This document shows, piece after piece, positions 916-21,157 of a stretch of 64,000 nucleotides of DNA. This stretch comes from an uncultured delta proteobacterium (GTDB taxonomy: Bacteria > Desulfobacterota > Desulfomonilia > UBA1062): assembly GCA_963752595.1 (NCBI GenBank), contig CAVVYZ010000001.1, positions 7,747 through 71,746 of the forward strand. The letters are read 5' to 3'. Below the pieces are notes generated by a model. That model was not told the DNA's origin, ran no database searches, and was given only the letters and a program-made list of their open reading frames with translations. Within the stretch, counting starts at the first letter, position 1; each line of letters begins with the position of its first letter. Position numbers and translations under genes: made by a program.

Positions 916-1659
916 ATGAGCGTAAACTTAGCTGATTACCAGGCCAAGGCAAGGGAAGCTGCCAAGGCATTTTGGGGGAATCGCGAAGCAGCCAGGCAGA
1001 AGCAGATTGAAAGCGGCAAAGCTGACCAGGGAGAACGAGCAGGAGTCCCGGCCGGAAAAAATATGGATGGGTTCCCGGCGTTGATAAAAGATGTCATACT
1101 CTTAAATGGACTTGATCACGCAGAAATCTGTTTAAAACGCCGGGTGCTCACCCTCCCCGGATTCTTCAGGCCCACAAAACTCTGGGATATGCTCGTGATG
1201 AATGAAAAGAGGCTTATTGCGGCCATTGAGTTAAAGAGCCAGGTCGGGCCGTCATTTGGAAACAATCTCAACAACAGGACAGAGGAGGCTATCGGCACCG
1301 GCCTTGACTTCTGGAAAGCATACCGGGAAGGGGCTTTTGGTGATAATCCACGACCATTTGTCGGTTGGTTGATCCTTGTTGAAGATTGTGCAAAATCTCG
1401 TTCTCCAGTGCGTGATTTCTCTACACACTTTCCGGTGTTCAAAGAGTTTATCGGAGCCTCCTATGCCGAGAGATATAACATCCTGTGCAAAAAACTTGTT
1501 CAGGAGCAGTTGTATACGAGTGCATCAATTATCTTATCACCCCGTTCTGTAGTCAGCTCAGGGGATTATTCAGAGCTTTCAGAGATGACAAGCCTAAAGA
1601 CGTTTATCAGCACATTAGCTGGTCATGCAGCTGCTGAGGCATCACGGGTGTATGGTTGA
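916..1659 (+). CDS. XhoI/PaeR7I-family type II restriction endonuclease (247 aa)
   Basis: Size and the M-then-R operon order match what I recall of the PaeR7I system (endonuclease about 246 aa). The central [23 protein letters not shown] block looks like the XhoI family. Recognised by eye only. Confidence 0.6.
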
Positions 1660-1756
1660 TTCTATCTGCGAAAAGGGGCCTTCTTTCTATAAGCAGTAGG
1701 GAAATGTTCACTCTCCCCTCTTAAAAAAGAAACGTCCCCTATTCCGTCATTAAGTA

Positions 1757-1778
1757 AGGGGATAAAAATAAATCCCCT
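1757..1778. terminator. Hairpin between convergent genes (AGGGGAT-N8-ATCCCCT)
   Basis: A perfect 7-bp stem with an A-rich loop sits between the nuclease stop (1659) and the minus-strand membrane gene stop (1790). There is no long U-tract. Confidence 0.4.
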
Positions 1779-1789
1779 GATACTATTCT

Positions 1790-2416
1790 CTAAATCCAGC
1801 CGAGCGCGCCGAAGACTACAAAACCTGCCAGATTGATCGCGCCGAGGATTCCGATGAACGCGAAGCTCTTTTTCAGCGGCGCATCATAGCACCAGACCGC
1901 AGCAGCGAAGAACGGGATGTAAACGGTCACGAAAACCGGGAACGCCCCCCAGAAGGGATAGACCCAGACAAAGGTCGGCGTCCTCACGAGGAAGATTTCG
2001 ATGATGGCAGCAGCCGCGGCTGTCGAGACGGCGACAAAGATCCTGCTGTTGATCCCCAGCATCTTGGCCGAAGGGTCTTTGGGAAGGAGTTTCGTGGTAA
2101 CGATGCCCGCAATGGAGAACATGATGCTGATCTCGATGCCCACGCCCACCATGATGGAGAATGCGGTTCCAGTGGGCACGGTCCAGAGTGCATGTCCGCT
2201 AACATGCTGGATGACGGCGTTGCCTATCTCCACGAACCAGTGGACCATGTACAGGCCGAGTCCTGCAGCTATGGCCTTATAGTTCCCCCGCTCATACTCA
2301 TTCCCGTAGATATACATGACAATGACCAAAAGCGGGATCGCAAACCACTGAAACTGATCGCCCGACCTTACAATACCGAGCGCCTGACTCGTTGCTTCCG
2401 GATGATTCAAGACCAT
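1790..2416 (-). CDS. Integral membrane protein, unknown function (208 aa, about 6 hydrophobic segments)
   Basis: Uninterrupted ORF with hydrophobic helical segments throughout. I recognise no family. Confidence 0.55.
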   Translation of the reverse strand: MVLNHPEATSQALGIVRSGDQFQWFAIPLLVIVMYIYGNEYERGNYKAIAAGLGLYMVHWFVEIGNAVIQHVSGHALWTVPTGTAFSIMVGVGIEISIMFSIAGIVTTKLLPKDPSAKMLGINSRIFVAVSTAAAAAIIEIFLVRTPTFVWVYPFWGAFPVFVTVYIPFFAAAVWCYDAPLKKSFAFIGILGAINLAGFVVFGALGWI

Positions 2417-2651
2417 GCTTACCTCCTCTTTCTCAGGGACAGGATAATGACTGAAAACAATGAATATTTATATAATAGCTATTAACCAATCAAAAGAAAA
2501 GCAATTAATAACAGTACAATAAACAATATTAATAAAAAGTCATAGCATCCCGGGCAGCATCTTTCGGGCTGAGTCGATTGAAAAGAAAAATCTTCTTTGA
2601 TTCCGTATTGCCGGTTTCTTACATAAGAATTTGTGAAGCAGAGTTCTTTTC

Positions 2652-2680
2652 TTGACAATGGTTTGACATCAAACTAAATA
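2652..2680 (+). promoter_or_regulatory. Sigma70-type promoter of the MarR gene with an embedded operator-like palindrome
   Basis: TTGACA (2652-2657), a 17-nt spacer, then TAAATA (2675-2680). The ATG at 2688 is only 7 nt downstream. The spacer contains the perfect palindrome GTTTGA-CA-TCAAAC (2661-2674). Confidence 0.55.
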
Positions 2681-2687
2681 TGAGTTC

Positions 2688-3110
2688 ATGAAGAAAGAGC
2701 TGATTATCCTCCAGATAGGCAGGATACGGGACAAGGCGAACAGCTTTCTGGCCGGAGAGCTTGCCCGGCGCAATCTGAAGGGGATAGCGCCATCCCATGG
2801 AGACATCCTCTGGGCATTGTTCACCCATGGCGATCTTCCCATGAAGAAACTTGCAGAGATCATCAATAGGGATAAATCCACGATCACGGCCCTGGTGAAC
2901 AAGCTCATCGAGTTCGGGTATGTCGGACGAAAAACCCATGAATCCGATCTCCGCAGCAATATTATCTCTCTGACGGAAAAGGGAAAGGCCGTGCAGAAGG
3001 ATTTCCGGCAGGTGTCGGATTCCTTAAGGAAGAAGGCATACCAGGGATTGACTGATGAGGAGATGGAGACCCTCATGCGGCTGCTTACCAGGGTCCACGA
3101 CAACCTGTAA
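2688..3110 (+). CDS. MarR-family transcriptional regulator
   Basis: 140 aa with a winged-helix core (LAEIINRDKSTITALVNKLIEFGYVGR ... DLRSNIISLTEKG) typical of MarR. Confidence 0.85.
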   Translation: MKKELIILQIGRIRDKANSFLAGELARRNLKGIAPSHGDILWALFTHGDLPMKKLAEIINRDKSTITALVNKLIEFGYVGRKTHESDLRSNIISLTEKGKAVQKDFRQVSDSLRKKAYQGLTDEEMETLMRLLTRVHDNL

Positions 3111-3230
3111 AAATATTATATTATTGGTTTGGCATCACCGGAGTGAAGTGCGGAGGCTGGGGGCACATCGTGATGGAAATCAGGGTTGAAGATCGCATAA
3201 AGGCAAATCGGGCAAAGTGAGGTTAATTGT

Positions 3231-3638
3231 ATGATGATGACAAAGGAACAAGCCAGGGAATTCGCATCGCAGTGGCTGCCTGCATGGACCGGGAACAATC
3301 CGGAAAAGCTGGCTGCCTTTTATTCCGATGACGCTCTGTACCTCGACCCGGTCATACCCCGGGGCCTCAAGGGGAAGGATGCATTGATGAAGTACTTCCG
3401 CAAGCTCCTTGCCGCCAACCCTGAATGGGTATGGACACAGATCGAGCCCATCCCGATGGAGGACGGCTTCCTGAACAAGTGGCTTGCGAAAATCCCTGTC
3501 GGGCCCAAGGTGATCGAATGCATCGGCGTTTGTTTTGTGCAGTTTAACGATCAGGGAAAAATCAGACGCAATGAAGTCTATTTTGACAGGCACGAATTAG
3601 TTTCCGAAATCCTGAAATATTCAGAGAAAATAGAATGA
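3231..3638 (+). CDS. NTF2/SnoaL-like small protein
   Basis: 135 aa. The N-terminal W..AW...N.E.LA.FYSDDA pattern is typical of SnoaL/NTF2-like folds. Confidence 0.55.
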   Translation: MMMTKEQAREFASQWLPAWTGNNPEKLAAFYSDDALYLDPVIPRGLKGKDALMKYFRKLLAANPEWVWTQIEPIPMEDGFLNKWLAKIPVGPKVIECIGVCFVQFNDQGKIRRNEVYFDRHELVSEILKYSEKIE

Positions 3639-3742
3639 GAGTTTCATGATCGCCTGGGACCTTGCAGGCACTGCAAAGAGCGTCCTTTAGTAAATCAAAA
3701 AACTCCGGGGGCCGGATCTCGACAAGGGATAACGGCAAGCTG

Positions 3743-5517
3743 TCAGCCGGGCACGATCGACTCCGGCATGTCGATGAGTCTGGCGCGCAGGTATTCGCCC
3801 AGGGTTTTGGCCTGTGGGTCGAGGCGGAGCGATGCGGCGGCGCCTTCGCCAAGGATGCCCCTGATGTAAAAGTTCACGGCCAGCAGATTGGGCAGCTCAC
3901 AGCGCTCGATGCCGTAGTCATGGAGGTCTTTGAGAAGATCCTTAAGCCTTTCCGTGGTCAGGAACTCCTTCAGGAAGGAATAAGCCTCCGGCGTCTTTGC
4001 CCACACCCCGAGATTGGCGTTTCCCCCCTTGTCTCCTGACCTGGTTGCAAACACCCGTCCGAAGGGCATCCGGACGGTTCTGCCACCCGGAACAACGGGG
4101 ATATCCGTCTCCGGGGTCTCGATGGCAGGAAAGCCGGCCACAGGCTGTACGCAGTTCACCGTGAATTCCCGGTCTTCGACCGTCACCTTCTGGCTGATGC
4201 ATGAGCTTGAAACCAGAGCCGGCCAGTACACGATAGCAGGGGTGCCCTTTGCAGGCGGGGCGGTGCCTGCAAAGCCGGGAATGTTGGCCAGGGCGAGCTC
4301 CACCATCTTCGACGATATCTTGTCCACCTTCTTCTGGTCCGGGTCGATCACCGTGATGCGCAGGTAGGCAAACGCCTCCTCGTTCGTGGCAGGGTCTTCC
4401 TTGTCGGATCGGATGAGCTGGATATCTGCCTTCTGGAACTGCTCCCTGCCACCCAGCGCATCGAAGAGGGTCTCTTCGAGAATGCGCGCCTTTTTCTCGA
4501 TATCGAGGCCGGTGAGGATCACGGTCATGGAGTTGCGGTAGCCGCCGAGCGTGTTGATGCAGACCTTGGCCGTAGCGGTGGGCGGTTCGCCCTTCACTCC
4601 CTGCACCAGCACCCGGTCGGGGCCCTGTCGAGAGATCCTGATGGTGTCGAAGCGGGCTACCAGGTCAGGAGTCAGATAGCGCTCGTCACCGATCTCATAG
4701 AGAAGCTGGGCTTTGACCGTGTCCACTGAAACGAGGCCGCCGGTGCCCGGATGCTTGGTGATGACGAAGGAACCGTCGTCATGGATCTCGGCAATAGGGA
4801 AGCCAACCTTCTTAAAGCTCGGGACCTCTTCGATAAAGGAATAGTTGCCCCCTGTAGCCTGGGCGCCGCACTCGATGATATGCCCGGCCGTGGTTGCGCC
4901 TGCAAGCCTGTCCCAGTCATCCTGCTTCCAGCCGTGCCACCAGGCCGCAGGTCCGACCACGAGCGAAGCGTCCGCGATGCGTCCGCCCACCACGATATCC
5001 GCGCCCTCTTCGAGAGCCTTCACGATGCCCCAGCACCCCAGGTAGGCATTTGCGGAGATCGTAATGGCCTTGGAGTCTTCGGAGCGCAATGCCCTTGTCC
5101 AGGTGAATGAACTCTTCCCCGGCAGCCTGGAGGTCACCCAGGCGGGCCATGAGATCGTCCCCCTCGATGTAGGCGATCTTAGGATGAAGGCCCAGCTCGG
5201 TTGCGATGCGCCCGAGCTCTGCAGCCAGGCCTTTCGGGTTCAGGCCGCCCGCATTCGATACCACGCGGATCTTTTTGTCGAGGCATTCGCCCATGATCCT
5301 GTTCCATCTGCCTCAGGAAGGTCGGGACATAGCCGCCGTTCGGGTCTTTCATCTTTGTCCTGAAGAGGATGGCCATGGTCAACTCGGCAAGGTAATCGCC
5401 GGTGAGAAAATCGATGGGGCCTCCCTGCACCATCTCCTTGGCGGCGCTCAGCCGGTCTCCGAAGAATCCGCTGCAGTTCGCGATAATGACCTTGTCTTTG
5501 CCGGTTCTTTCGTTCAT
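3743..5517 (-). pseudogene. AtuA-like acyclic terpene utilisation protein (DUF1446), interrupted by at least 2 frameshifts
   Basis: Three ORF pieces (5179-5532, 4917-5294, 3743-5137) join into one roughly 590-aa AtuA-like protein (IIANCSGFFGDRLSAAKEMV..., ANAYLGCWGIVKALEEGADIVVGGR...). GGAGG lies 6 nt before the ATG at 5517. The frameshifts could be sequencing errors. Confidence 0.75.
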
Positions 5518-5528
5518 GCCATCCTCCT

Positions 5529-6300
5529 TCACTTGCCTTTGAAAACCGGCGTCCGCTTTTCGATGAAGGCCGTGATGCCTTCCCGGGCATCTTCGGTCGA
5601 AGCCACCTCCACCAGCTTAGCCGAAAGGAAATCCAGGGCCTCAGTAAGCGTCATGCTTTCCGCCGCGTTGAATGCCTGTTTCCCGATCTTCATGCCGATG
5701 GGGCTCTTGGAGGCAAGACTTTTCAGAACAGCTTCAACCACGCCTTCGAGCTCCCCTGCAGGTACCACCCTGGTGACCAGGCCCATGGCAAGCGCATCCT
5801 GTGCGTCTAGCCGTCGCCCAGCAGGATCATCTCCATGGCCTTTTTCCTGCGGCACGTTGCGGAAGATGAGCGCGCCGATCATCATGGGCCACAGGCCCAC
5901 ATTGACCTCGGGCGTGCCGAACCGGGAGTCGTCGCTGGCGATGACGATGTCGCAGGCGAGCATGAAGCCCATGCCTCCTGCCAGGCAGTATCCTTTCACC
6001 CGGGCAACCGTGGGCTTCGGGAAACGTCGCGAGGCGTTTCAGGAGCTGTGCATAGCTCGCAAAGGTCTTCTTCCCTTCGGCAGATATGCCGTCGCCCAGC
6101 TGGGCGCCCGTGCAGAAGGCCTTGTCCCCTGCCCCGGTGATCAGGACCGCCCTGACGTCGCAGTCGTTCTCGGCCCTGTCCAGATACTCCAGGAAAAGCG
6201 CGATGGCCTCAGGGGTGATGGCATTTCTCTGCTGCTCACGGTTGATCGTGATCCAGGCCACATTATTTTCCACATGGTAGAGAAGGTGCTCATCCGCCAT
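5529..6300 (-). pseudogene. Enoyl-CoA hydratase/isomerase (crotonase, AtuE/LiuC-like), frameshifted
   Basis: The N-terminal piece (VAWITINREQQRNAI...VLITGAGDKAFCTGA) and C-terminal piece (GYCLAGGMGFMLACDIVIAS...GITAFIEKRTPVFKGK) are in different frames. A further shift is suggested around EKGHGDDPAGRRLDAQ. Confidence 0.75.
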
Positions 6301-6322
6301 TTTTTAAGCTCTCCTTTTACGC

Positions 6323-8361
6323 TCAGGCCGCTGATTTCTCATCCTGCTCGATGTCCACGAGGATCTGGCCCGGGCATGACCTTGTCGCCCTCGGCGACAT
6401 TGATCTTGATAACCTTACCCGTAAACGGCGCCTGGATAGTCGTCTCCATCTTCATGGCCGAGACCACGACGACACCCTGGCCTTTCTCCACCGGGTCGCC
6501 CTCGGTCACCAGGATGCGCACGACCACCGAGGGCATGGGCGGGGTGACCTCCTGGGGAAGCTCCTTGTGCCCACTCCTGCGGGTGCTTGCCCCGGCAAGG
6601 GCATCGGCATCCTGGACCGCGTAGGTGGTGCCGTCGATATTGATGAGCTTGCCTCGCGGATCATCTGCCAGAAAGACATTCGCACAGACGCCGTCCACCT
6701 CCAGGTGGATCCGGTTCTCCGAGACGATGCGGTAAAGGGCCTTGACGTTCCTTCCGCCGATCGTTGCGGTCACGATGCCTTCTTCCTGCAGATCGGCCTC
6801 GACGGGAATATCCTGTCCGGCGATCTTCAGGTATAGTTCATATCATATCTCCGTCATGAGCCGTGCTACGGCCGGAAGTGGCCCAGTGTCTGCCATGGCG
6901 AGCAGGCTTCGATTTCGGCTGACAGCTGCGGCTGCCTGCTGCTTCCGGTTCGCCATGGCATCGACCACGTATGCCAGCGCTAGAGGTCCGTATCCGTCAT
7001 CGTTGGGCTGCCAGGCAGCTGAAATGGGTGTCGATGAAGTCGGTGTATGTCTCCCCTTTTGAAGGCCTCCGATGAGAGGATGTCGACGAGGAACGGGATG
7101 GGGGTCAGCACGCCCAGGATCACGTAGTCTTCAGCGCCCTGATCATCCGGCTGATGCACTCCTGCCTGCTGCCCGCATGGACGATCAGCTTCGAGAGGAT
7201 GGGGTCGTACTCCACGGGCACGGTGATAGCCCGAATAGACGCCGCTGTCGTTCCTGATGCCCGGGCCCCTGGGCTCCTTGACAAAATGGATCTTGCCCGG
7301 TGACGGCATGAAGGCGTTCAAGGGATCTTCCGCATAGATGCGGCATTCGATGGCATGGCCGCGGCCCACGATATCGTCCTGGGAGAGCTTCAGGGGTTTC
7401 CCGCGGCGATCTCGATCTGCTGGCGCACCAGGTCGATGCCGGTGATCATCTCGGTGATGGGGTGCTCCACCTGGAGGCGGGTGTTGACCTCGAGAAAATA
7501 GAACTTGCCCGCTGCGTCGAGCAGGAACTCCACGGTTCCGGCATTCACATAGCCCGCAGCCCTGGCCGCGGCCACGGCCGCCTTCCCATGCGTCTTCCTG
7601 AGCGCGGGGTCAGCGCCGGAGAGGGCGTCTCCTCGATGATCTTCTGGTGCCGTGCTCTGGATGGAGCATTCCCGCTCCAGCAGGTGGATCACGTTTCCGT
7701 GCATGTCGGCCAGGATCTGGAACTCCACGTGCCGGGGCTTTTCGAGATATTTTTCCAGGTAGATGTCCCCGTTGCCGAAGGCGCTCTTGGCCTCGCTGGA
7801 TGCCGAGACGCAGGCCTCCCTGAAATCTTCCGGCGACCGCACGACCCGCATGCCCTTGCCGCCGCCGCCTGCCGCGGCCTTGATGAGGACCGGGTAGCCG
7901 ATCTTCTCCGCCTCGCGGGCCAGGATATCGGGTCCGCCTCGGGCTCGCATCATGCCCGGAATGACGGGCACGCCGCTTCCGATCATGGTCCGCCGTGCCA
8001 CGGTCTTGTCTCCCAGATCGCGGATGGCCCTGGCCGGGGGGCCGATGAAGATCATGCCTTCCTGCTCGCACCGCTCGGCAAAGAGGGGATTTTCCGCCAG
8101 GAACCCGTAGCCGGGGTGGATGGCCTGGGCCCCGGTCTGTTTGGCCGCCGCAATGATCTTGTCCATGTTGAGGTAGCTTTCCGCAGGCTCGGAAGCTCCC
8201 AGGCAGACGGCCTGGTCGGCTTCGAGGACATGCAGGGCGTCCCGGTCCGCCTCGGAATAGACTGCCACGGTCCTGATGCCCATTTCCCGGCAGGTGGCGA
8301 TGATGCGCACGGCAATTTCGCCCCGGTTGGCGATGAGTATCTTGTCGAACATGGTCATCAT
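6323..8361 (-). pseudogene. Acyl-CoA carboxylase alpha subunit (biotin carboxylase + BCCP; AtuF/MccA-like), multiple frameshifts
   Basis: Biotin carboxylase N-terminus [21 protein letters not shown]-grasp loop [14 protein letters not shown]-domain AIECRIYAEDP and biotinylation motif AMKMET are all present. The pieces lie in at least 4 frames. The C-terminus reads PGQILVDIEQDEKSAA* if one base is removed from the G/C run at 6367-6375. Confidence 0.8.
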
Positions 8362-8384
8362 CTTCCTTTGCACACTATTCCTTT

Positions 8385-10035
8385 TGTCATACACTACATC
8401 CTGAATATCCCGAAGCCCGGCACATCGTCCCGGATGGGCGCATTCAGCGCGGCCGAGATGGCAAGCCCCAGGACGTTCCGGGTATCCGCCGGGTCGAGGA
8501 TGCCGTCGTCCCAGAGGTTCGACGTGCTGTAGTAGGCATCGCCTTCCTTTTTGGCCGCCTCGACGATGGGCATGCGGATGAGCGTCCTCCTCCTCCGTGG
8601 TCATGGGCGGCAGGCCCGCCTTGGCGTTCTGGTCGTTCTTCAGGGTGATCAGCACGCCGGCGGCCTGCTCGCCGCCCATGACCCCGATCTGGGCGTTGGG
8701 CCACATCCAGAGGAAGCGCGGGGAATAGGCCCGGCCGCACATCCCGTAGTTGCCCGCCCCGAAGGATGCGCCCACGATGACCGTGAACTTCGGGACCGTG
8801 CAGGTGGAGACGGCATTGACCATCTTGTGCCCGTCCTTGGTGATACCCGAGCCGCTCGTACTCCCTGCCGATGATGTAGCCGTTGATGTTCTGCAGGAAG
8901 ACCAGCGGGATCTTCCGCCGGTCGCAGATCTGGATGAACTGGGTGGCCTTGAGCGCGCTGTCGGAGAAGAGGATGCCGTTGTTCCCCAGGATGCCCACGG
9001 GATAGCCGTGGATATAGGCGAACCCGCAGACCAGCGTCGGCCCGTAGAGCTCCTTGAACTCCAGGAACTCGCTGCCGTCCACGATGCGCGCGATGATCTC
9101 CCGGCAGTCATAGGGCACCTTCAGGTCCCGGCTCACGATCCCGTAGATCTCCTTGGGGTCGTAGAGGGGCGGCTTGGGCTCCCGCATGGTGAGCCGTGCC
9201 TTCTCGTTCTTCGGCAAGGCCTCCGACGATCTTGCGGACGATCGAGATGGCATGGGCATCGTCCTCGGCGAAATAGTCCGAGACGCCGGACTCGATGCAG
9301 TGCACCTCGGCCCCGCCGAGCTGATCGGCGGTCACCTCTTCGCCGGTGGCCGCCTTGACCAGGGGCGGCCCGCCCAGGAAGATGGCGCCCGTTCCCTTGA
9401 CATGGACGACCTCGTCGGACATGGCGGGGACATACGCGCCGCCTGCCGTGCAGAGCCCCATGACCGCCGTGATCTGGGGGATGCCCATCTTGGAGATGAC
9501 GGCCTGGTTGTAGAAGATCCTGCCGCCGTCGTCGATATCCGGGAAGATCTCCGATTGCATGGGCAGGTATGCCCCGGCCGAATCGAGCAGGTTGACCATG
9601 GGCAGGCGGTTTTCCATGCAGATGGTCTGGCAGCGCAGGTTCTTCTTCACGCCCATGGGGTAGACCGCCCCGCCCTTGATCATGGCGTCGCTGGCGATGA
9701 CCAGCACCTCGTGCCCCTCCACGATGCCGATGCCGGCACACCAGCCCGGCCCCATGGACCTTGCCGTCATACATGCCCCTGGCGGCCAGGGGCGCGATCT
9801 CCAGAAACGGGGTATTCCTGTCCAGGAGCAGATCGAGCTTCTTGCGCACCGGCATCTTGCCCTGGGCGGCCAGGCGGTCGATGTCCTTCTGGGGGCGTTC
9901 CTCCCTGGCCTTTTTCAGTTCCTGCTTGAGGTCCGCCACCAGGGCTTCCATGGCCTCATAATTTTTCCTGTACTCTTCGGAGTCTGTGTCGATCCTGGTT
10001 TCGATGACATCCATCGTACGTTCACCTTTGATCAA
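8385..10035 (-). pseudogene. Acyl-CoA carboxylase carboxyltransferase beta subunit (AtuC/MccB-like), multiple frameshifts
   Basis: Consecutive homologous blocks are scattered over three frames ([16 protein letters not shown]; [15 protein letters not shown]; [24 protein letters not shown]; [28 protein letters not shown]; C-terminus [16 protein letters not shown]). Confidence 0.8.
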
Positions 10036-10070
10036 AGATTCCCGTCAGCCTGCTGCCGGGTACCTCATTT

Positions 10071-11240
10071 TTACGCCTGAAGAAACCTGTCCAGCTCGTT
10101 TTTGGCGATCAAGTGCCCGCTGCATCTCCGATGTGCCCTCGCAGATCTCCCCGAACTTGGCATCGCGGTAGAGCCTCTCCATGTCGCTCCCCGCAAGGTA
10201 CCCATGGCCGGCAAAGATCTGCATGCCCCAGTCGGCGATCTTTGTTACCGCCTCACTGGCAAAGAGCTTCGCGCACGCAGCCAGGACTCCGGCCTCCTGC
10301 TCTCCGGTGTTGATCGCCCAGGCAGCCCGCAGGGCCAGCATCCGCCCCAGATCGTTGATAGGTGAACATGTCCGCCAGCTTGAAGCCCACGTCCTGATAC
10401 AGGCCGATGCGGCCTGCCGAAGGCGGTCCTGGCTCTTGGCATGGCTCGTGGAGATCTCCATGCAGGCGTTCCCGATCCCGACGCACAGAGCGCGCGATGC
10501 CGACCGTGCCCATGGTCAGGATGCGGTCTACCTGTTCGTATCCTTTCCCGGCGACGCCCCCCAGGATGCCCGAGGCCGGCAGTTATACAGGGATACGGCC
10601 GCGATGGGAACGCCCCGCAGACCCATGGTCTCGACGGGGTCGGCTATCTTCAGACCTTCGGCGCCTTTTTCCACGATGAAGATGCTCATGCCTCTTTCGG
10701 CGCCGGCGTCTTTGTCACGTGTAGGCAAGGACCAGGATCACATCCGCTATGGGCGCGTTGACCACGATATCCTTTGTCGCCGCTGAGCAGCCACGCGTCG
10801 CCGTCTTTGCGGGCGGCCGTCGTGATCGCCGCCAGGTCCGAGCCGGCCTGGTCTTCCGAGTAGGCAAGGGCGCCCACCATGCTCCGCCTTCAGGAGGGCG
10901 GGGATATATTGCTGCTTTCTGCTCCGGCGTGCCGAACAGCCTCAATGCCCCGGCGCACAGGAAGGTGCTCGCCCGGGCGCTCAGATAGGTGGCCGGGCAG
11001 GCCTTTGCGATCACTTCGCCCGCCAGGTAGATCGTCGACCAGATCCATGGCATCGCCTGCCTGGCCCGCCTCCAGCCAGCCGCCCTGGGCCAGCATCTGC
11101 AGGTTTCCCTCATGTACGCGCCCGCCTCTTCGCGCGTGCAGCCGATCGAGCATCTTCGCCCTGGGCGCGATCTCGGCCTGGCAGAAAGCGGCCAGATCCT
11201 GCTGCAGCTTCACCTCTTCCGGAGAAAGCTGATAATCCAT
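10071..11240 (-). pseudogene. Acyl-CoA dehydrogenase (AtuD/LiuA-like), at least 4 frameshifts
   Basis: N-terminus MDYQLSPEEVKLQQDLAAFCQAEIAPRA, middle GMSIFIVEKGAEGL and C-terminus FAGHGYLAGSDMERLYRDAKFGEICEGTSEMQR are present. The natural end IAKNELDRFLQA* appears after a 1-nt shift. Confidence 0.75.
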
Positions 11241-11266
11241 CTGCTTTCACCTCCTTTCACAGCCAA

Positions 11267-12420
11267 TTACATCATCATGATCCTGGACACGATCATGCGC
11301 ATGATATCCGATGTGCCCCCGCCGATGGCCGCCAGCTTGGAATCGCGGAAGTTTCTCTCCACCGGGTACTCATGCATGAAGCCGTATCCGCCGAAGATCT
11401 GCACGGCCTCCGACGCCATCTCGAATCCCCGGTCGCCCGGCATAGACCTTGCTGACTGCCGCCTGCAGAGGGTTGAGCATCTGGCCCGTTGTCCTTGGCC
11501 GAGGCAACCCGGTAAATGGCGAGCCGTGACGGCCTCGATAAAGACCTTCATATCGGCGATCCGGTGCTGGATGGCCTGGAAGCTCCGGATGGGGCGGTTG
11601 AACTGGTGCCGCTCGTTGGCATAGCGGGCGCACAGCATCCAGGTTGTTGAGCGCCGCGCCCAGCATGGGCGAGAGCAGGGTGCAGCGGTCCCACTCGACG
11701 CCGCTGAGCGCGATGAACCAGCCCTTGCCCTCGCCGGCCAGACATTTTCCTCCGGGACTTCGCAGTCTTCGAAAAAGACCTCCGAGGTGGCGGAGCACTT
11801 GCACCCCATCTTGTGGAAGGGTTTGCCGGTCGAAAGCCCGGGGGTTCCCTTTTCGATGATGAAGGCGGTGATGCCCTCGTGCTTTTTCGACGCGGTCCAC
11901 ATTGGCAAACACGACGAAGACATCCGCCACCGGGGCATTGGTGATGAAGGTCTTCGAGCCGTTGAGGATATACCGGTCGCCCTTCTTCACCGCCGTGGTC
12001 CTCAGGGAGGCGGCATCCGAACCGGAGCCCGGCTCGGTGAGCCCCATGCAGCCGATCCACTCGCCCGATGCGAGCCTGGGGACATACTTTTTCTTCTGCT
12101 CCTCGGTGCCGAAATCAAAGATGTTATGGGCGCACAGGTAGGTATGGGCGCCCCAGGCAAGCAGGCTGCCGCCGTCCACCCCCGCATGCCCCAGGGCCTC
12201 TCCGGCCAGGCAGCAGGTGACGATGTCCGCCCCCGACCCGCCCAGTTCCTCGGGAAAGGGCAGCCCCAGTATCCGCATGAGCGCCGAGCTTGTTCCAGAT
12301 CTCGAAGCTGAACTCACCCCTGAGATCGGCTTCTTCGCAGAGAGGGGCGATCTCTTCTCTGCCGTAGCGGAAGACGGTTTCCCTGAACATCTTCTGTTCC
12401 TGCGTGAGGGAAAAATCCAT
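11267..12420 (-). pseudogene. Acyl-CoA dehydrogenase (second copy), at least 3 frameshifts
   Basis: Blocks MDFSLTQEQKMFRETVFRYGREEIAPL, GLTEPGSGSDAASL, GITAFIIEKGTPGLS and IFGGYGFMHEYPVERNFRDSKLAAIGGGTSDIMR lie in different frames. GGGAGG precedes the ATG at 12420. Confidence 0.75.
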
Positions 12421-12451
12421 GGATAACCTCCCTATTCGCAATAAAAATACT

Positions 12452-12618
12452 ATAAGTTAATAATGCTACTGACAGTAATATTTAAACCATAGTTAACTTA
12501 TTGTCAAGAGCATTGCGTGCAGTTTTCAGCTGACCGAGGTGTCAACCCGAGGTATAATCCTCTATATTTTCTTACAATCTGCATCCATGGTGATGTATAC
12601 TTAACTATCAGTAGCATT
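12452..12618. promoter_or_regulatory. Divergent control region with operator-like repeats (candidate TetR sites)
   Basis: AATGCTACTGACAGT (12462-12476) recurs inverted as ACTATCAGTAGCATT (12604-12618) with 1 mismatch. ATAAGTTAA (12452-12460) pairs with TTAACTTAT (12493-12501). Local palindromes are TACTG-A-CAGTA and GTAGC-ATT-GCTAC. Confidence 0.4.
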
Positions 12619-12653
12619 GCTACTTATGGTCACTTAGAGCGTTAATCCGAGGC

Positions 12654-13340
12654 ATGGAGAAAAACATGGATGCAGAAACATCAAGAAGTGATACAGGAAA
12701 GGAAAAAGAGAGAAAAGGACCAGCGCATCCAGGGCATCCTGCCGCCGCCAAAAAGGTTTTTTTCTCCAAAGGCTATCTGAAGACGACCATGGACGAGATC
12801 GCCTTTGAGGCACAGATCAGCAAACCCACCATATACCAGTACTTCAGGCACCAAGGACGAGCTCTACTCATCTCTCATGCTGCCCTTCCTGGAAGAGTTC
12901 GGCTCCCAGTTCGAACGCATCGAAAAGAAACTTCCGGCATGCAAATACGCTACAGGGCCGGCAAAAATCTGGTGAAGGACCTATTCAAGATCTTTTCTGC
13001 GAAAGCTACGAAAGGCGCCCGACTCCCTCAGGGTCGCCAACACCTTTTTCCAGCACCAGGACCTCATCAATGAACTCAATGCGGAAACCCGCTCGGCCAT
13101 CAGCAGCAGGGGCAAATACGATTTCGAGCTGGCCAGACGGGTTCTCGAATCGGCCGACACACCAGGGCCTGATCAGGGATGTCGACACTTCGCGCTCTCC
13201 GATATCATCTGGGGACTGCTCCTTGGCATAACCCAGGTCATGGACATGAAGGCCACGAAGCGCTCCGGACCGGACAAGTATCTCAAGTCGACCTTGCAGA
13301 AGCGGAAAGGCTCATAGCGGATGCTATAGCCCTGAAATGA
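12654..13340 (+). pseudogene. TetR-family regulator (AtuR-like position), frameshifted
   Basis: The HTH block AAKKVFFSKGYLKTTMDEIAFEAQISKPTIYQYF is present. Frame breaks occur before it (at the CTGCCGCCGCC run) and after it. The 3' end is my reconstruction (…AEAERLIADAIALK*). Confidence 0.6.
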
Positions 13341-13579
13341 TATGAACCATCCCCGCATGGTGCGGGGAATGAGCGGGCGGGCGCGCGAACGTGCGACAAA
13401 AAAACTGCGGGGAAAGCCGGCCGGGAAAATGACTTTGCAATGGGAGGATTCGGCCCGATCTCAGTGATCAACAGCCATGCTTGTCAACCATGAAATGTTG
13501 AGATCCTAAAACCCCTTCGCGTTTCGAACTTTGAAAGACAGAGCCTTCGAGGCCTGTTTTTGAAAAAGGAGGCGGCATT

Positions 13580-15294
13580 ATGGATAGAGATCGATTCTGG
13601 AAGAAGTCGTATGATCCCGGGCTGGAGGATATCGACCCTGCCGCATGGGAAACCACGTATCCCGAAGTCTGCCGGCAGACATTCAGCGAGCTACACCGAC
13701 AAGACGGCCCTGGCCTTCATGGGGGTGCACATCACCTTTGCCGAGCTGGACCGCTATGCAAACAGGTTTGCCCACATGCTCCTGTCCCTCGGGACTGAAA
13801 AAGGGCTCGGTGGTGGGGATCAATCTCCCCAATATCCCGGAATATGTGATCGCATGGCTGGGCGCCCTGCGGGCGGGATGCGTCGTCTCCGGGGTATCCC
13901 CGCTCCTTTCACGCCGAGGAAATGGAGCATCAGCTCAAGGATTCCCAGGCCACGGGTGCTGGTCACCCTGGATGCCCTGTATGCGGCAAAGCTTGCCCCA
14001 GGTCGCCTCCAGCCTCCCGGATCTCAGGGCGGTGGTCGCAGCCAGCGTAGGTGGTTTCCTCCCCGGTGTAAAGAGGTTTCTCGGGCACGCTGCTGAGAAA
14101 GATCCCCAAGGGCAAGGTGACCCCCTGCGAGGGAAAAACGGTTATTTATCTTCAAGGAAGTCATTAAACCGGGAGGTTCCCCGACCAGGATCCCAAGATC
14201 GACCTTACCCCGGATGATATCGCCTATCTCCAGTATACCGGAGGAACAACCGGAATGCCCAAAGGCGCTATGCTGAGCCACAGGAACGCCGTGGCCGATC
14301 TCCTGATATTCCAGAAATGGCTCGGATGGGAAAAGGGTAAAGGCGTGGGGCTCTCGGGATTTCCCTTTTTCCACATCGCCGGAATATTCACCAATGCCAA
14401 CTGCGTGTACCTGGGCTGGCCCCAGGTCCTCATCCCGAATCCCAGGGATACGGACCATATCTGTAAGGAGCTGGCCAGGTACAAGCCCAACATAATGGCA
14501 AATGTCCCTCCGTTCTATCTGCTCCTGACGGCCAGACCCGAAATTCAAAACCCTGGACCACTCCAACATGAAGACGTGCGTGTCGGCGGCGGCTCCGTTC
14601 CCTGAGGAGGCACAGAAGGAATTCGAAGCGATCGTCGGCGCAGGAAAGATCATGGAAGGGCTATGGAATGACGGAAACGTCGCCTCTGACCGTCGTTCAA
14701 TCCCGATCAAGGGCAGAAAGAAAGTCGGCACGATCGGACTGCCGCTTGCTCAATACGGACATCCGGCTCGTCGGACCCGGCTACAGGCAAGGAAGTGGGG
14801 CCCGGGCAGCCGGGCGAGATCTGCATAAAAGGACCCCAGGTGATGGTGGGCTACTACAATAAGCCGGAAGAGACCAGGCAGGTCATCGATGCGGAGGGAT
14901 AGCATGCATACCGGGGATGTGGCCATACAGGATGAGGAAGGATACTTAAGGCTCGTGGACCGCACCAAGGATATGATCAATGTGGGCGGCTTCAAGGTGT
15001 TTTCCCGGAAAGTGGAAGAGGTGCTGTGCCGTCACCCGGCCGTCAACATGGCAGCCACGATCGGCATAGACAATCCGGAACGGCCCGGCTCGGAGGTCGT
15101 GAAGGCGTATCTGACCCTCAACCCCGATCATCAGCCGGTGGAGGATATGGAAGCCGTCAAGAGGGAAATCCTCGATCATGCCAGGGAGAAGCTGACCCCG
15201 TATGAAGTCCCCAAGGAGCTGGAGATCCGGACACGAGCTCCCGCTGACCAATGTCGGCAAGATAGACAAGAAGGTCCTGAGAAAGGAGGGCTGA
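13580..15294 (+). pseudogene. AMP-dependent acyl-CoA synthetase/ligase (AtuH/FadD-like), many frameshifts
   Basis: AMP-binding motifs YLQYTGGTTGMPKGAMLSH, GYGMTETSP (split by a frameshift), MHTGDVA and a C-terminal LPLTNVGKIDKK are spread over three frames. AAAGGAGG precedes the ATG at 13580. Confidence 0.8.
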
Positions 15295-15354
15295 GGACTC
15301 GGCATCCACGCCTCCTCACGCTTTCATAACCGGATAGATGCCGGTCTCGCCTCT

Positions 15355-16995
15355 TCAGTCGGGATAGAACCGCTTGACACATTCCGGGCAGAGGCTGTGG
15401 GTGAAGACGGCATCGGAGTGCTTGGTGATATAGCTTTCGATCTGATTCCAATACCCTGTATCATCCCGGATTTTCTTGCAGCCGGCGCAGATGGGGAGCA
15501 TGCCGCTCAGGGTCTTGACCTCCGCAAGGGCCTGCTGGAGCTCTCTGACCAGATTACCCCTTTCCAGGGCGGCCTTCCTGCGCTCAGTGATGTCTCTCGA
15601 CACCCCGTGTACCCCGATGATCCTGCCGCTATTGTCGCGAATAGCGGTGCAAAGGAGTTCCATCCATACCGTTGAACCATCCTTGCGGAAATACTCCAGT
15701 TCAAGCCTGATCGTCCTCCCCGGATCGACTCCCTCCTCATGATCTCGCTTGAGCTCTGCATACAATATATCCATGATATAACCAAGAGATGCGGGGGTCA
15801 GGGATTCACTCTGGTATTTCTGCATAAACTCTTCCGGTTCGAATCCGGTTACTTTTTCAATGGAAGGGCTGATATAGGTAAGGTTAAAATCCAGATCCAT
15901 TGTCCAGACGACATCGTTTGTCTTCTCGGTCAGGAGGCGGTACTTTGCCTCGCTCTGGCGTAAGAGCTCTTCCTTCTGCATCCGGCTGTCCTCGTTGCCG
16001 ATGGCCGAGGCGATAAACCCGAGGACACGCTTATCGTCGTCACTCGGTAAATAATCCGTCTTGTATACGACGCAGAGGGCTCCTACAGGCTTGCCCTCAC
16101 ACTTCACCGCCTGGCCGAAGTAGGTCTTCAACCCGTACTGACGCACATGGGGATCGGATTCAAAATAGGGAGTCCGGGGCAAATCGGTGACCAGCACCGG
16201 TTTGTCATCACTGTGGTGGATCACGTCGCAACAGATGCGCCCTTCGGGTAGACTTCCTTCAAGGAAATCAGGAGGGATCTGCCACCTGCCTACGGAATAG
16301 AGCAAATCTCCTTGCATACGGTTGTACAGAGCGCAGTCGGCACCGAGCATCTCGCCGCAGATGGCAGTCAGCCGGTTGATATTCGACACGTGATCAGCGC
16401 CGAGCTCCAGGAGACAGCCATTGATCTTCTCCAGTCGATCCCTTTGTTCTTTGAGTTCGGCCTCTGCCCGTTTGTGTTCGGTGATGTCAAGGATGCCTCC
16501 CACGAGGCCGGCAACGCGGCCATCGGCATCAACAAACGTCGCCTTGTTGAAAACAACATCGTGTATGCTTCCATCGGCGTGGAGGACGGACGCCTCATGC
16601 ACCTGTGTTTCCGGGTGGCTGAACAATGCCGTGTCTGCCTTGTAATATACTTCCGCCAGGTCATGGGGGTACGCTTCGTAAACGGTCTTTCTGACAATCT
16701 GATCCTTTGTCGAGCCGAGAAATTTCTCAAATGCACGATTGCATCCGCAGTATACCCCCCTGATGTCTTTGTAAAACACCGGGATGGGAATAGCATCAAG
16801 CAGCTGTTGGAAAAAAATCAGCCTTCTGTTCCGATCTTCTCTCAGTTCTCTCCGGGATGCTGATTCTTCCATTTCAACAACTCGCCTGCTCTCTTCGTTC
16901 AACTCTTCCGAATGCTGCCTCTTAAATCTCTGATCATCTTTCATGCCGGCTACCTCAACCATACAAGCCATGTATCGCTGAGAAATGCATTCCAT
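15355..16995 (-). CDS. Cytoplasmic PAS-GAF-PAS sensor protein with a C-terminal Cys4 (CxxC...CxxC) module
   Basis: Intact 546-aa ORF with two PAS-like blocks, one GAF-like block (GKPVGALCVVYKTDY...) and the terminal LPICAGCKKIRDDTGYWNQIESYITKHSDAVFTHSLCPECVKRFYP. There is no kinase, GGDEF or HTH output domain. Confidence 0.8.
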   Translation of the reverse strand: MECISQRYMACMVEVAGMKDDQRFKRQHSEELNEESRRVVEMEESASRRELREDRNRRLIFFQQLLDAIPIPVFYKDIRGVYCGCNRAFEKFLGSTKDQIVRKTVYEAYPHDLAEVYYKADTALFSHPETQVHEASVLHADGSIHDVVFNKATFVDADGRVAGLVGGILDITEHKRAEAELKEQRDRLEKINGCLLELGADHVSNINRLTAICGEMLGADCALYNRMQGDLLYSVGRWQIPPDFLEGSLPEGRICCDVIHHSDDKPVLVTDLPRTPYFESDPHVRQYGLKTYFGQAVKCEGKPVGALCVVYKTDYLPSDDDKRVLGFIASAIGNEDSRMQKEELLRQSEAKYRLLTEKTNDVVWTMDLDFNLTYISPSIEKVTGFEPEEFMQKYQSESLTPASLGYIMDILYAELKRDHEEGVDPGRTIRLELEYFRKDGSTVWMELLCTAIRDNSGRIIGVHGVSRDITERRKAALERGNLVRELQQALAEVKTLSGMLPICAGCKKIRDDTGYWNQIESYITKHSDAVFTHSLCPECVKRFYPD

Positions 16996-17424
16996 GATAT
17001 TTCCAATTCTTAATAATAATGCTCACCTATTAAAATGATAGTACCTGGATAAAAAATGATTCCTTTTTCCCCGTTACGACCTCCTGTCGATAATATCGGG
17101 TGCAAGGGAGAATTCAGCCCTTGAGCGGATGGCATTCTCCCGGTCAGCGAAAAATACCTGCGTGCGGATAATCGATGATAGTCCAAGGTTACCCCCCGAC
17201 TTGCACCGCATCCTGCAGCATGGAAGAGCTTCCTGGACATTATCCGTGATGTTGCCGCCATCGACCGTTACCATTGCGGGGTGATCTACCGCGTGCTATG
17301 CCGGCGGGAGAACGCAGGCGCAAGATAATGCCGTCCACCCCCGAATTCGACGGCAGCCTTATGCACACACAGGGGAGATGCGTCGGCAGTGTCAGACTCT
17401 CCTTCCTCTGACAGAAAGGACGAT

Positions 17425-18260: not shown

Positions 18261-21157
18261 TCACATCTCGATCGCCCGCCTCACGACTGCTTTCAGTTCG
18301 CCGGTGCTGGACGGCTTATGAAGCAGCTCTTTTATTCCCAATGATTTCGTTTCATTTTCGTTGATGACATCACTGAAGCCCGTACTGAGTATTATGGGGA
18401 TGTCGGGACGGATATTCAGGAGGCTTCTTGCGAGCTCTACGCCTGTCATCTTCGGCATGGTCAGATCGGTAATGACCAGCTGGAATTCTTCGGGATGTTT
18501 ACGAAAAAGATCGAGAGCTTCCATGCCATTTTTCACCGCAGACACATGGTAGCCCAGGTGCTGCAATACACGCTGCAGGCTGGAAAGGATCATTCCCTCG
18601 TCATCTACCAGGAGAATCCTTCCCATACCTTCCTTCGACACATCCCTGCGGGATTGACGTGACTGTTCACCGGATTTCTCTTCAAAGAGAGGAATATGCA
18701 CGGTAAACTTCGATCCCTTCCCAGGCTCGCTCTCGACCGAGATAGTTCCGCCAAGGCTTTTGAGGATGCCATGGGCAAACGGCAACCCCATTCCAGTGCC
18801 CTTTCCGACCTCCTTTGTGGTAAAGAACGGCTCGAAAATCTGCTCCCTTACTTCCTCAGACATTCCACAACCCGTATCGCGTACGGTGAGCTCGAGGTAT
18901 TCTCCTTCTTTTGTCTCCTGACTTGATGCAAGGTGCACTTCGGAAAGACCGACTTCGATGGTCCCTTGCAGTGATTCCAATGCATCTGCAGCATTCCTGA
19001 TGAGGTTCATGATTATCTGGTGAATCTGTGTGGGATCGCCCATCACCACATCCAAATGAACATCGATATGCTGCTTTATCTCGATAGTGCTCGGAAGAGA
19101 GGATCTGGCGAACTTGAGGGCCTCCTGCAGGAGGGGCGTAACCTTAACGGGCATGAGCTTCTGCTCGCTTCGCCTGCTGAAAGAGAGAATCTGTTTCACC
19201 AGGTCTCTTTGCCGGTAGGCAGCTTCGATCACCTCCTGCAGCATCTGATGCTGATCGGTGTCTGCCTGCGACTCTCCCAGAAGGATCTCGGTATTGACCA
19301 CTATCGGATACAGGATGTTATTCAGGTCGTGGGCTATCCCCCCGGCAAATCTTCCAATCGCCTCCAATCTCTGGGTTTGCATGAGCTGATCCTCGAGCCT
19401 TTTCTTTTCTTCCTCCGCTTTCTTGCGCTCGGTGATGTCAAATCAGGAAGTTCAATGTTGCAGGCCTGTCATTCCATGAAACCCGGATTGCAATGATTTC
19501 AACCCACTTCACATTATCCGTCCTTATCCACGATCCTAACGTCATACGTCGCAGGCATGATCCTCGCCCTTCGTCCGTTTCTGGAGACTGGCAACCACCA
19601 TAACCCTGAAACTTCATGGTTCATGTATCGGTCTTGCAAAAGGATACGAGATCAGCTCTTCTTCCGGATAACGAAGCAGCTCTACGGTCCTGGAATCGAT
19701 GAACCGGATAATTCCATCCTGAGCCACGATAATGGCCTCATATGCGTTATTCCACTACTGTCCGGTATTTCTCCTCCGAAGCGGCAAGGGCCTCTTCAGC
19801 CTTTTTGCGTTCGAATATCTGCTGCTCGAGCTGCGTGTTCCTCGCCTCGACCTCGGCTGTCCTTTCCTTTACGAGCTCTTCCAGGTGGCTGCGATATCTG
19901 ACCAGTTCCTCTTCTGACTGCTTGCGCCCGGTGGTGTCCAGACAGATTCCCGTCATCCGTAAGGGGCGACCCTGATCATCGTATAATCCCCTTCCCATGG
20001 CGCTGATCCATCGGATCTGGCCATCAGGGTGAATGACCCTGAATTCATTAACCATCAGGGAATGTTCCTTCAATGCCTTGTCTATCCGCGAGACAGTACT
20101 CTTGCGATCATCAGGATGCAGGACGGCTTCCCATGTCTCGAATGATGCGTTGTCTTTCTGAGGGTCAAGCCCGAAAAGATGAAACATTTCAGGATCCCAC
20201 TCGAGCCTTCCCGGTTGTGATATCCCAGTCCCACACCCCCTCGCCGGCCGCAAGCTGCGCCATCTGCAGGCGCTCATTCGCCACGCGCGTTGCTTGTTCA
20301 GCCTGTTTCCGCTTGGTGATGTCGATGCCGAACGATACCGTCCCAACGACCCGGCCGTGTTCGCTCACTTCATTGTTCTGCCAGATAATATAGCGTTCTT
20401 CGCCTGTTTTGGTCAGGATGGGATTCTCATAATTCTTGGGCATCTCTCCCGACGCTAACCGATCGAATTCAGACCAGACCTGAGGGTAACGGTCCCTTGG
20501 CACGATGAGCTCGAACCAGTTGCGATTTTTCACCTCATCCCTAGTATACCCCGTAATCTCTTCAGCTGCCTTATTGAAAACCCTTACATTCCCTTTCAGG
20601 TCCAACCCCACAACCATTGCATTGGCAGTCTCGATCAGGCTTTCCGCATAGTCCCTGGCCTCTTGCAGGGATGTTCCGGCTTGCTTACGCCCGGTTATTA
20701 CTTCCGTAAACATGATGAGCCCGCCGATCTCTCCGGTTTGTTCGTACCATGGAATCGCTTCCCAGCGTACCCAGTCGAGGCTGCCATCCAATCGGGGGAA
20801 AGGATCTTCGTCGCATCTCTCGGGTTCTCCGGCCAGAACGCGTTGGTGGATCTTTTTCCACTTCTCCGGAATCTCCGGGAATACCTCGTAATGGGTCTTA
20901 CCGATGATGTCCTGATCACCCAGACCGTAATCGGAGAGCCATCGGCGGCTGACGGCAATGTACCTCATATGGTAATCAAACATCGCGATGGCTGCCGGTG
21001 CATGCTCGATACACATTCTCAATTGTTCATTACTTTTCTGCAGAGCCTCCTCCGTCCGCTTGCGTTCGGATTCCAACTCTTTCGATCGGGCGATGATCCG
21101 GCGTGCTTCTGCCAGCTCTTCCATGAGCTGCTTTTTCGTCTTATGGGTCTCGCTCAT
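18261..21157 (-). pseudogene. Multi-PAS hybrid sensor histidine kinase (HisKA-HATPase-REC), frameshifted in the PAS region
   Basis: ORFs 20189-21157 and 19747-20346 (PAS domains) and 18261-19382 (H-box GGIAHDLNN, G-boxes DTGCGM/GTGMGL, receiver LLVDDE) are colinear. The 19383-19750 segment translates as another PAS domain only when several frame changes are allowed. Confidence 0.8.

Follow-up and report, generated by a model that had tools for sequence, protein, structure and literature searches.

Frameshifts in an AtuA-linked acyl-CoA carboxylation cluster of a Desulfomonilia metagenome-assembled genome are very probably assembly consensus errors

The window analysed here is a stretch of 64,000 nucleotides (G000:C1:7747-71746) from the metagenome-assembled genome (MAG) of an uncultured delta proteobacterium. 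The MAG, G000, comprises 4.12 Mb in 31 contigs, with an estimated completeness of 84% and an estimated contamination of 6.8%. Near the start of the window lies a gene cluster of the Atu/Liu type, encoding a biotin-dependent acyl-CoA carboxylase and its companion enzymes, in which every gene is interrupted by frameshifts. The original prediction, which was made from the sequence itself, left two readings of this cluster: an island gained by horizontal transfer whose genes are decaying into pseudogenes, or an intact pathway obscured by indel errors. The analysis supports the latter. The approximately 58 frameshifts are very probably (probability about 0.93) assembly consensus errors superimposed on an intact, functional nine-gene module, and not the result of gene decay.

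The gene cluster and its frame changes

Pfam searches of the open reading frame (ORF) fragments identified nine genes, all nine split over several frames. The predicted gene set, in which two acyl-CoA dehydrogenases, a carboxyltransferase, a biotin carboxylase with its biotin carboxyl carrier protein (BCCP), an enoyl-CoA hydratase and AtuA are accompanied by a divergent TetR regulator and a ligase, was borne out by these searches. The original prediction was also right that all genes are frameshifted, but it counted eight of them, while the biotin carboxylase and the BCCP are separate ORFs in intact relatives. The AtuA family (PF07287, Pfam 1.8e-120) and the AtuA_ferredoxin domain are both present in the cluster. 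From about 5.1 to 15.3 kb the ORF listing contains nothing but short, overlapping, frame-hopping ORFs. The features of the locus are as follows.

3743..5517, minus strand: AtuA-family gene (PF07287 plus AtuA ferredoxin-like domain); Pfam, frameshift alignments and an intact 590-aa copy on contig L106
5531..6300, minus strand: enoyl-CoA hydratase (ECH_1; AtuE/LiuC-like); Pfam and frameshift alignments
6325..6841, minus strand: free-standing BCCP, about 170 aa; Pfam Biotin_lipoyl, separate ORF in G001, G015, G011 and L107
6868..8352, minus strand: biotin carboxylase subunit, about 495 aa, lacking a BCCP domain; Pfam and NCBIfam
8396..10014, minus strand: carboxyltransferase beta subunit of the 3-methylcrotonyl-CoA carboxylase (MCC)/geranyl-CoA carboxylase (GCC) lineage, 538 aa; Pfam and PDB searches
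10073..11240, minus strand: acyl-CoA dehydrogenase 2, about 386 aa; Pfam
11269..12420, minus strand: acyl-CoA dehydrogenase 1, 382 aa; Pfam
12670..13338, plus strand: divergent TetR-family regulator, about 220 aa; Pfam
13580..15320 (3' end approximate), plus strand: AMP-forming (long-chain-type) acyl-CoA ligase, about 565 aa; Pfam and NCBIfam
4306..15313, no strand: patch of assembly errors and strain variants; Logan contig comparison and frame tracking

The frameshifts were counted by a purpose-written, frameshift-aware protein-to-DNA dynamic-programming alignment. Plain tblastn was dropped as a shift counter, since its high-scoring segment pairs ran straight through the shifts. Two independent intact references were used. 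The same-genus genome G001 has a syntenic, intact operon and TetR gene with 78% nucleotide identity to the window; it has no ligase at the locus, and G015 and G011 therefore served as ligase references. The second reference, L107, is a 225-kb JGI metagenome contig (Ga0373875_000061) on which all nine genes are intact and in the same order, with the ligase and TetR genes on one strand and, divergently, the two dehydrogenases, the carboxyltransferase, biotin carboxylase, BCCP, hydratase and AtuA. Acyl-CoA dehydrogenase 1 and the carboxyltransferase of the window are approximately 94% identical to the corresponding L107 proteins.

The number of frame changes was 57-59 when compared with G001, the range reflecting the two ligase references, and 58 when compared with L107. 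The prediction of 25-30 or more was thus right about the heavy frameshifting, and too low by about half. AtuA has two shifts, both one-base insertions, near 5077 and 5301, and the hydratase has three, near 5812, 5849 and 6019-6024. Relative to L107 there are two shifts in BCCP, eight in the biotin carboxylase, four in the carboxyltransferase (all one-base insertions), 11 in dehydrogenase 2, seven in dehydrogenase 1, five in TetR (seven relative to G001), and 16 in the ligase (13-15 relative to G015/G011).

One extra nucleotide accounts for 47 of the 58 shifts (81%, binomial p = 2e-6), the remaining 11 being of the two-nucleotide or minus-one type. The nucleotide alignment to G001 likewise gave 29 one-base insertions and eight one-base deletions. 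Homopolymer-driven error was considered as the source and ruled out, as 22 of the 29 inserted bases lie outside any run. All 58 lesions are 1-2 nt in size, and no large deletion was found in the cluster. When the frames are repaired by alignment to L107, approximately 3,600 codons contain no in-frame stop, while 290 substitutions, 3.2% of them stop-creating, would under neutrality be expected to give 9.4 stops (P(0) = 9e-5). Once repaired, the products run to full length and share 65-94% identity with those of intact relatives.

Bacterial pseudogenes show a deletion bias, and the insertion bias found here is the opposite. On the view that the strain in the MAG bears a decaying allele of a high-GC Atu island gained by horizontal transfer, and that a strain occurring alongside it kept the genes intact, a mixed lesion spectrum would be expected, and neither nonsense codons nor deletions above 2 nt are seen. 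It does speak for such decay that the lesions are present in the deposited sequence and that the cluster is an accessory one, AtuA being present in three of 11 other genomes of the genus. The G+C content of the cluster, 8 points above that of the rest of the window, points the same way. It is 0.60 against 0.52, so the original prediction of an elevated G+C content holds, but the value of 65-73% does not (0.52-0.64 per kb). The orthologous clusters are likewise G+C-rich, and an old horizontal transfer of the cluster is possible.

Since the repaired frame is free of stop codons, it could also be supposed that the cell reads through the frame changes by programmed ribosomal frameshifting or unusual decoding. 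The 58 sites, however, share no slippery motif or context and are scattered at random, similar patches occur genome-wide, and in both the relatives and the read-derived copy described below one frame suffices for the same proteins. Recoding is so improbable that it can practically be disregarded.

Read-derived contigs and the borders of the patch

Contigs assembled from the reads of run ERR10755943, for which a search of the literature gave no hits, were retrieved from Logan by looking for exact matches to the proteins of the intact neighbouring genes. One of these, L106 (ERR10755943_3369122, 4,468 bp), corresponds to window positions 1566-6036 and is continuous from the unique flank, with its MarR and SnoaL genes, into AtuA and the hydratase gene. 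It is 100% identical to the window over 1566-4305, while 47 substitutions and five one-base indels separate the two over 4306-6036. The indels, at 5077, 5301, 5812, 5849 and 6019, are the AtuA and hydratase breaks that had been predicted by alignment, and L106 carries an intact 590-aa AtuA as well as the 3' part of the hydratase gene in frame. A second contig, L105, corresponds to window positions 15230-17418. It lacks the extra base found at 15288 in the window, in the 3' end of the ligase gene, and is identical to the window from 15314 on except for a single-nucleotide polymorphism at 16732. Each of the six indels in the Logan overlaps thus coincides, or nearly so, with a frame break in the window. 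The original prediction had held that reads restoring the frames would point to artefact, and these contigs restore all five AtuA and hydratase breaks that they cover, with the sixth indel in the ligase 3' end.

As identity between window and contigs ends at 4305 and resumes at 15314, the damaged patch extends from 4306 to 15313. This covers the bulk of the cluster, but the predicted limits of 3743-15294 need adjustment, since the final 560 nt of AtuA lie outside the patch.

Over the 1.7 kb of the patch interior that is comparable with Logan, the two sequences differ by approximately 2.7% substitutions in addition to the one-base indels. The substitutions are distributed over codon positions 1, 2 and 3 as 16:4:27 (chi-square p = 2e-4), and the resulting amino acid replacements are conservative (R/K, I/V, T/S, D/E). 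This bias and the nature of the replacements identify the substitutions as real polymorphisms filtered by selection and not as random errors. The window haplotype is a genuine strain variant shaped by purifying selection. A separate haplotype for the patch, at 2.7% divergence from the intact copy, would fit a decaying allele, but purifying selection on the broken haplotype is the reverse of the relaxed selection which the original prediction had proposed to look for in real lesions, and the six indels in the overlaps are absent from the in-frame, read-derived copy.

A search of 5.8 billion proteins for near-identical intact copies of dehydrogenase 1 and the ligase gave best matches of 94.6% (a 258-aa partial sequence), 93.5% (full length) and 80%, and none of these thus originates from the same population as the MAG. 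It was these searches that brought up the intact reference cluster on L107.

All three Logan contigs examined (L105, L106 and L108) end at the border of an error patch or at most 1.7 kb inside it; the third stops 42 nt from the border of a patch in the carbon monoxide dehydrogenase/acetyl-CoA synthase (CODH/ACS) operon. This suggests that the patches lie in segments that vary between strains, and that k-mer assemblies break at these segments too.

The contig ends could also be explained by a chimeric assembly, in which the 11-kb patch stems from a low-abundance related organism and was spliced in at low coverage, the cluster then being foreign to the genome. The borders are indeed sharp, with flanks 100% identical to the read-derived contigs and an interior that is about 3% diverged, and the estimated contamination of the MAG leaves room for foreign sequence. 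However, L106 joins the unique flank to AtuA and the hydratase, so that the dominant haplotype also has the cluster at this locus, and patches elsewhere hold the sole copies of core genes such as the phosphoglycerate kinase (PGK) gene, which makes them replacements and not additions. A chimera is considered unlikely, though it deserves to be kept in mind. It bears on which allele was assembled, and the frameshifts are judged to be artefacts either way.

Frame-switch patches across the genome

To survey the 4.1 Mb of the MAG, a two-model codon hidden Markov model (HMM) was trained on long ORFs from the same genome and applied as a 13-state frame-tracking Viterbi scan. Long-ORF coverage per 10 kb was useless as a frameshift detector, as high-GC DNA yields long spurious ORFs. 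Inside the patch there are 2.8 same-strand frame switches per kb, compared with 0.53 per kb over the remaining 53 kb of the window; the density in the patch is far above the level given by chance or by gene boundaries. The scan identified approximately 89 dense frame-switch patches with a total length of about 250 kb, or about 6% of the MAG (examples are C2:16000-29500, C9:232800-239800, C26:30400-36200, C28:14800-24800 and C17:233000-239000). Within the patches +1 shifts are in excess (681:468, p = 4e-10), while the two directions are even outside them (1433:1405). Frame-switch density increases with G+C content (Spearman rho 0.29). As a sole driver G+C is only partly supported, since about one quarter of the windows above 0.60 G+C are clean, and an ORF of 615 aa at 35518-37365 of the window studied here is intact despite a G+C content of 0.62.

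Core metabolism is affected in the same manner. Pfam places fragments of Prismane, CdhC, CdhD and RACo in alternating frames within the CODH/ACS operon. The PGK family model matches G000 only as frame pieces at one locus (within C9:237600-239200), while each of six relatives (6/6) has a single intact gene, and this sole PGK gene contains 13 frameshifts in 1.2 kb compared with that of G001. By reading the path translations alone, GatCAB, MetK, AhcY, AroC/K/B, EF-P, TPI, cobalamin synthesis and PotABCD also appear to be broken. A cell with core genes such as PGK shredded would not be viable, and the patches must therefore be artefacts.

The same observation tells against gene decay in the cluster. 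The lesions are not confined to dispensable genes, PGK and CODH/ACS being hit equally densely, and patches of the same kind wreck the single-copy, essential PGK gene and, by path translation, GatCAB and EF-P. Taken together with the insertion bias, the absence of stop codons and the purifying selection on the window haplotype, this leaves pseudogenisation of a horizontally acquired island, one of the two readings originally offered, very improbable.

The frameshifts are accordingly regarded as artefacts because of their insertion-biased spectrum, the core genes hit genome-wide, the intact Logan copy and the codon-position evidence of selection. To this can be added conservation, since the nine-gene architecture is intact on L107 and the operon with TetR is intact in G001; comparison with orthologous loci, originally suggested as a check, thus found the cluster whole in both, apart from the ligase that G001 lacks at the locus. 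Some points weigh against the artefact reading. Direct comparison with read-derived sequence covers 6 of the approximately 58 sites. Since the Logan sequence is the other haplotype, what it strictly proves is the coexistence of an intact allele in the population, and not the intactness of the allele in the MAG itself. The HMM survey of patches is a heuristic that gives more noise in G+C-rich DNA. Finally, the patches checked are those of CODH/ACS (by Pfam) and PGK (by intact relatives), while the other core genes were assessed by path translation.

On this explanation the 11 kb from 4306 to 15313, in a metagenome assembly of long-read style, retain single-base consensus errors, mostly insertions. 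Here the assembly took up a strain variant that differs by about 3% from the Logan haplotype, and it was poorly polished. As a probable cause, strain heterogeneity or thin local coverage may have left the long-read consensus poorly supported or unpolished. Indel-ridden stretches of long-read or hybrid metagenome assemblies share with the patches the clusters of single-base indels, the sharp borders, the damage to essential genes, the absence of the indels from accurate-read contigs and the location in strain-variable segments. No substantive difference between the two was seen.

With about 6% of the MAG riddled with errors, core metabolism included, inferences of pseudogenes, gene loss or genome reduction drawn from it are false or unsafe, and its completeness of 84% is probably an underestimate.

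The carboxylase module and its relation to known pathways

The underlying biology is ordinary, as intact Atu/Liu-type carboxylation modules occur widely among related anaerobes of the Desulfobacterota. Named relatives with the cluster include MAGs and genomes of Desulfomonilia, Syntrophaceae/Syntrophales, Smithella, Desulfatitalea and Desulfococcaceae. Environmental assemblies hold hundreds of intact homologues of dehydrogenase 1 and the ligase, those of dehydrogenase 1 being 382 aa long and 85-94% identical. The original prediction found it notable to meet such genes in an anaerobe, a view that does not survive the many intact copies in Desulfomonilia, Syntrophales, Smithella and Desulfatitalea. 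What remains of modest interest is the carboxylase of this clade in strict anaerobes, with its split alpha subunit and its hybrid MCC/GCC selectivity signature.

The best structural-sequence match of the carboxyltransferase is the MCC beta subunit of P. aeruginosa (PDB 3u9r, 642-658 bits), followed by GCC beta (PDB 5ikl, 466-481 bits). Propionyl-CoA carboxylase (PCC)-type enzymes give about 190-255 bits and glutaconyl-CoA decarboxylase about 150 bits. The alignment to MCC beta begins at residue 2 and thus includes the N-terminal extension, which is lacking in PCC beta (PMC4673880). Judged by sequence, the carboxylase belongs to the MCC/GCC lineage and not with the PCC or glutaconyl-CoA enzymes, and at the family level the bit scores agree with the geranyl- or methylcrotonyl-CoA type originally proposed.

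Jurado et al. reported that Phe191 of MCC beta, which is preceded by a three-residue insertion, blocks the geranyl pocket, that GCC beta has a glycine (Gly162) at this position and lacks the insertion, and that the F191G substitution in MCC opens the pocket to geranyl-CoA (PMC4673880). In the window carboxyltransferase the Phe191 position, as mapped by our own alignment offsets and not from the figure in that paper, is occupied by Gly163. The P. aeruginosa MCC segment reads FPDREHFGRIFF, with 'DREHFGRIFF' within it, and the window as well as 12 related Desulfobacterota-type loci have glycine at the position of the phenylalanine. The three-residue deletion of GCC is not found, as the window segment aligns to MCC beta with no gap. 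As read from these alignments, the carboxyltransferase of the clade has a hybrid signature, with a GCC-type glycine and an MCC-like length. The signature segment lies at about 9520-9560 of the window (residues 157-168), and the loci compared were L025-L104. Among these, other AtuA-linked carboxyltransferases fall into a second class with a GCC-like 'IFVP---GGRGF', in which the deletion is present, and a third, from SAR86/Gammaproteobacteria, with an insertion of 4-16 aa ending in 'HFAESGRLFYE'.

The alpha subunit is split, with biotin carboxylase (about 495 aa) and BCCP (about 170 aa) encoded by separate ORFs in the four independent intact assemblies G001, G015, G011 and L107. The pair is located at 6325-8352 in the window, 9989-11998 in L011 and 14108-16129 in L107. 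A fused BC-BT-BCCP alpha chain of about 650 aa, which is canonical for MCC and GCC, was found neither in the cluster nor in its intact relatives.

The module thus consists of TetR, the ligase, two acyl-CoA dehydrogenases, a three-protein biotin carboxylase (carboxyltransferase beta, biotin carboxylase and free BCCP), the hydratase and AtuA. Judged from the Pseudomonas Atu and Liu systems, it would lift the beta-methyl block of 3-methyl-branched acyl-CoAs, through activation, alpha,beta-desaturation, gamma-carboxylation of the methyl branch, hydration and, finally, cleavage of acetate. Those 3-methyl-branched acyl-CoAs that are larger than methylcrotonyl-CoA are the substrates that we, by a small preference, consider most likely. 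AtuA would be the only candidate for the lyase step, a role suggested by the Pseudomonas literature. An HMGL-like domain, as in the HMG-CoA lyase LiuE, was not detected in the window cluster or in L107. Tentatively, bacteria of the Desulfomonilia/Syntrophales type may possess, in the intact cluster, an anaerobic counterpart of the Atu route that handles beta-methyl-branched (isoprenoid-derived) acids. At its centre would stand a distinct split-alpha carboxylase of three proteins, whose beta subunit, with its MCC-like length and GCC-type glycine, would always be AtuA-linked.

Two observations concern the surroundings and variants of the module. On L107 a third acyl-CoA dehydrogenase gene (18870-20006) directly follows AtuA, at a place where the window has SnoaL-like (3231-3638) and MarR (2688-3110) genes. 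Some ligase homologues of about 670 aa (P0170, P0172-P0174, P0187 and P0197) bear an N-terminal PilZ domain (PF07238), which hints at cyclic di-GMP control of fatty-acid activation in some Deltaproteobacteria.

The closest known system is the atuR-atuABCDEFGH cluster of Pseudomonas aeruginosa and P. citronellolis, which shares with the window cluster AtuA, a divergent TetR regulator, acyl-CoA dehydrogenase, an MCC/GCC carboxylase, enoyl-CoA hydratase and a ligase, as well as the glycine of the beta subunit at the GCC Gly162/MCC Phe191 position. The original prediction that the cluster reproduces the composition of atu is therefore correct at the family level, but not in detail. AtuB and AtuG, the short-chain dehydrogenases, are missing, as no SDR domain was found by Pfam in the fragments at 3.7-15.3 kb or in the L107 cluster. 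There are two acyl-CoA dehydrogenases (three in L107), the alpha subunit is split into biotin carboxylase and free BCCP, and the beta subunit, which scores 658 bits against MCC beta and 481 bits against GCC beta, is closer in sequence to the former and retains the three-residue insertion of the MCC type. The host, moreover, belongs to a strict-anaerobe lineage (Desulfomonilia/Syntrophales-like). With the Liu pathway, represented by 3-methylcrotonyl-CoA carboxylase (PDB 3u9r), the cluster shares the logic of dehydrogenase, carboxylase and hydratase as well as the best match of the beta subunit; it differs from Liu in having AtuA and no HMG-CoA lyase, and in the replacement of the selectivity phenylalanine by glycine.

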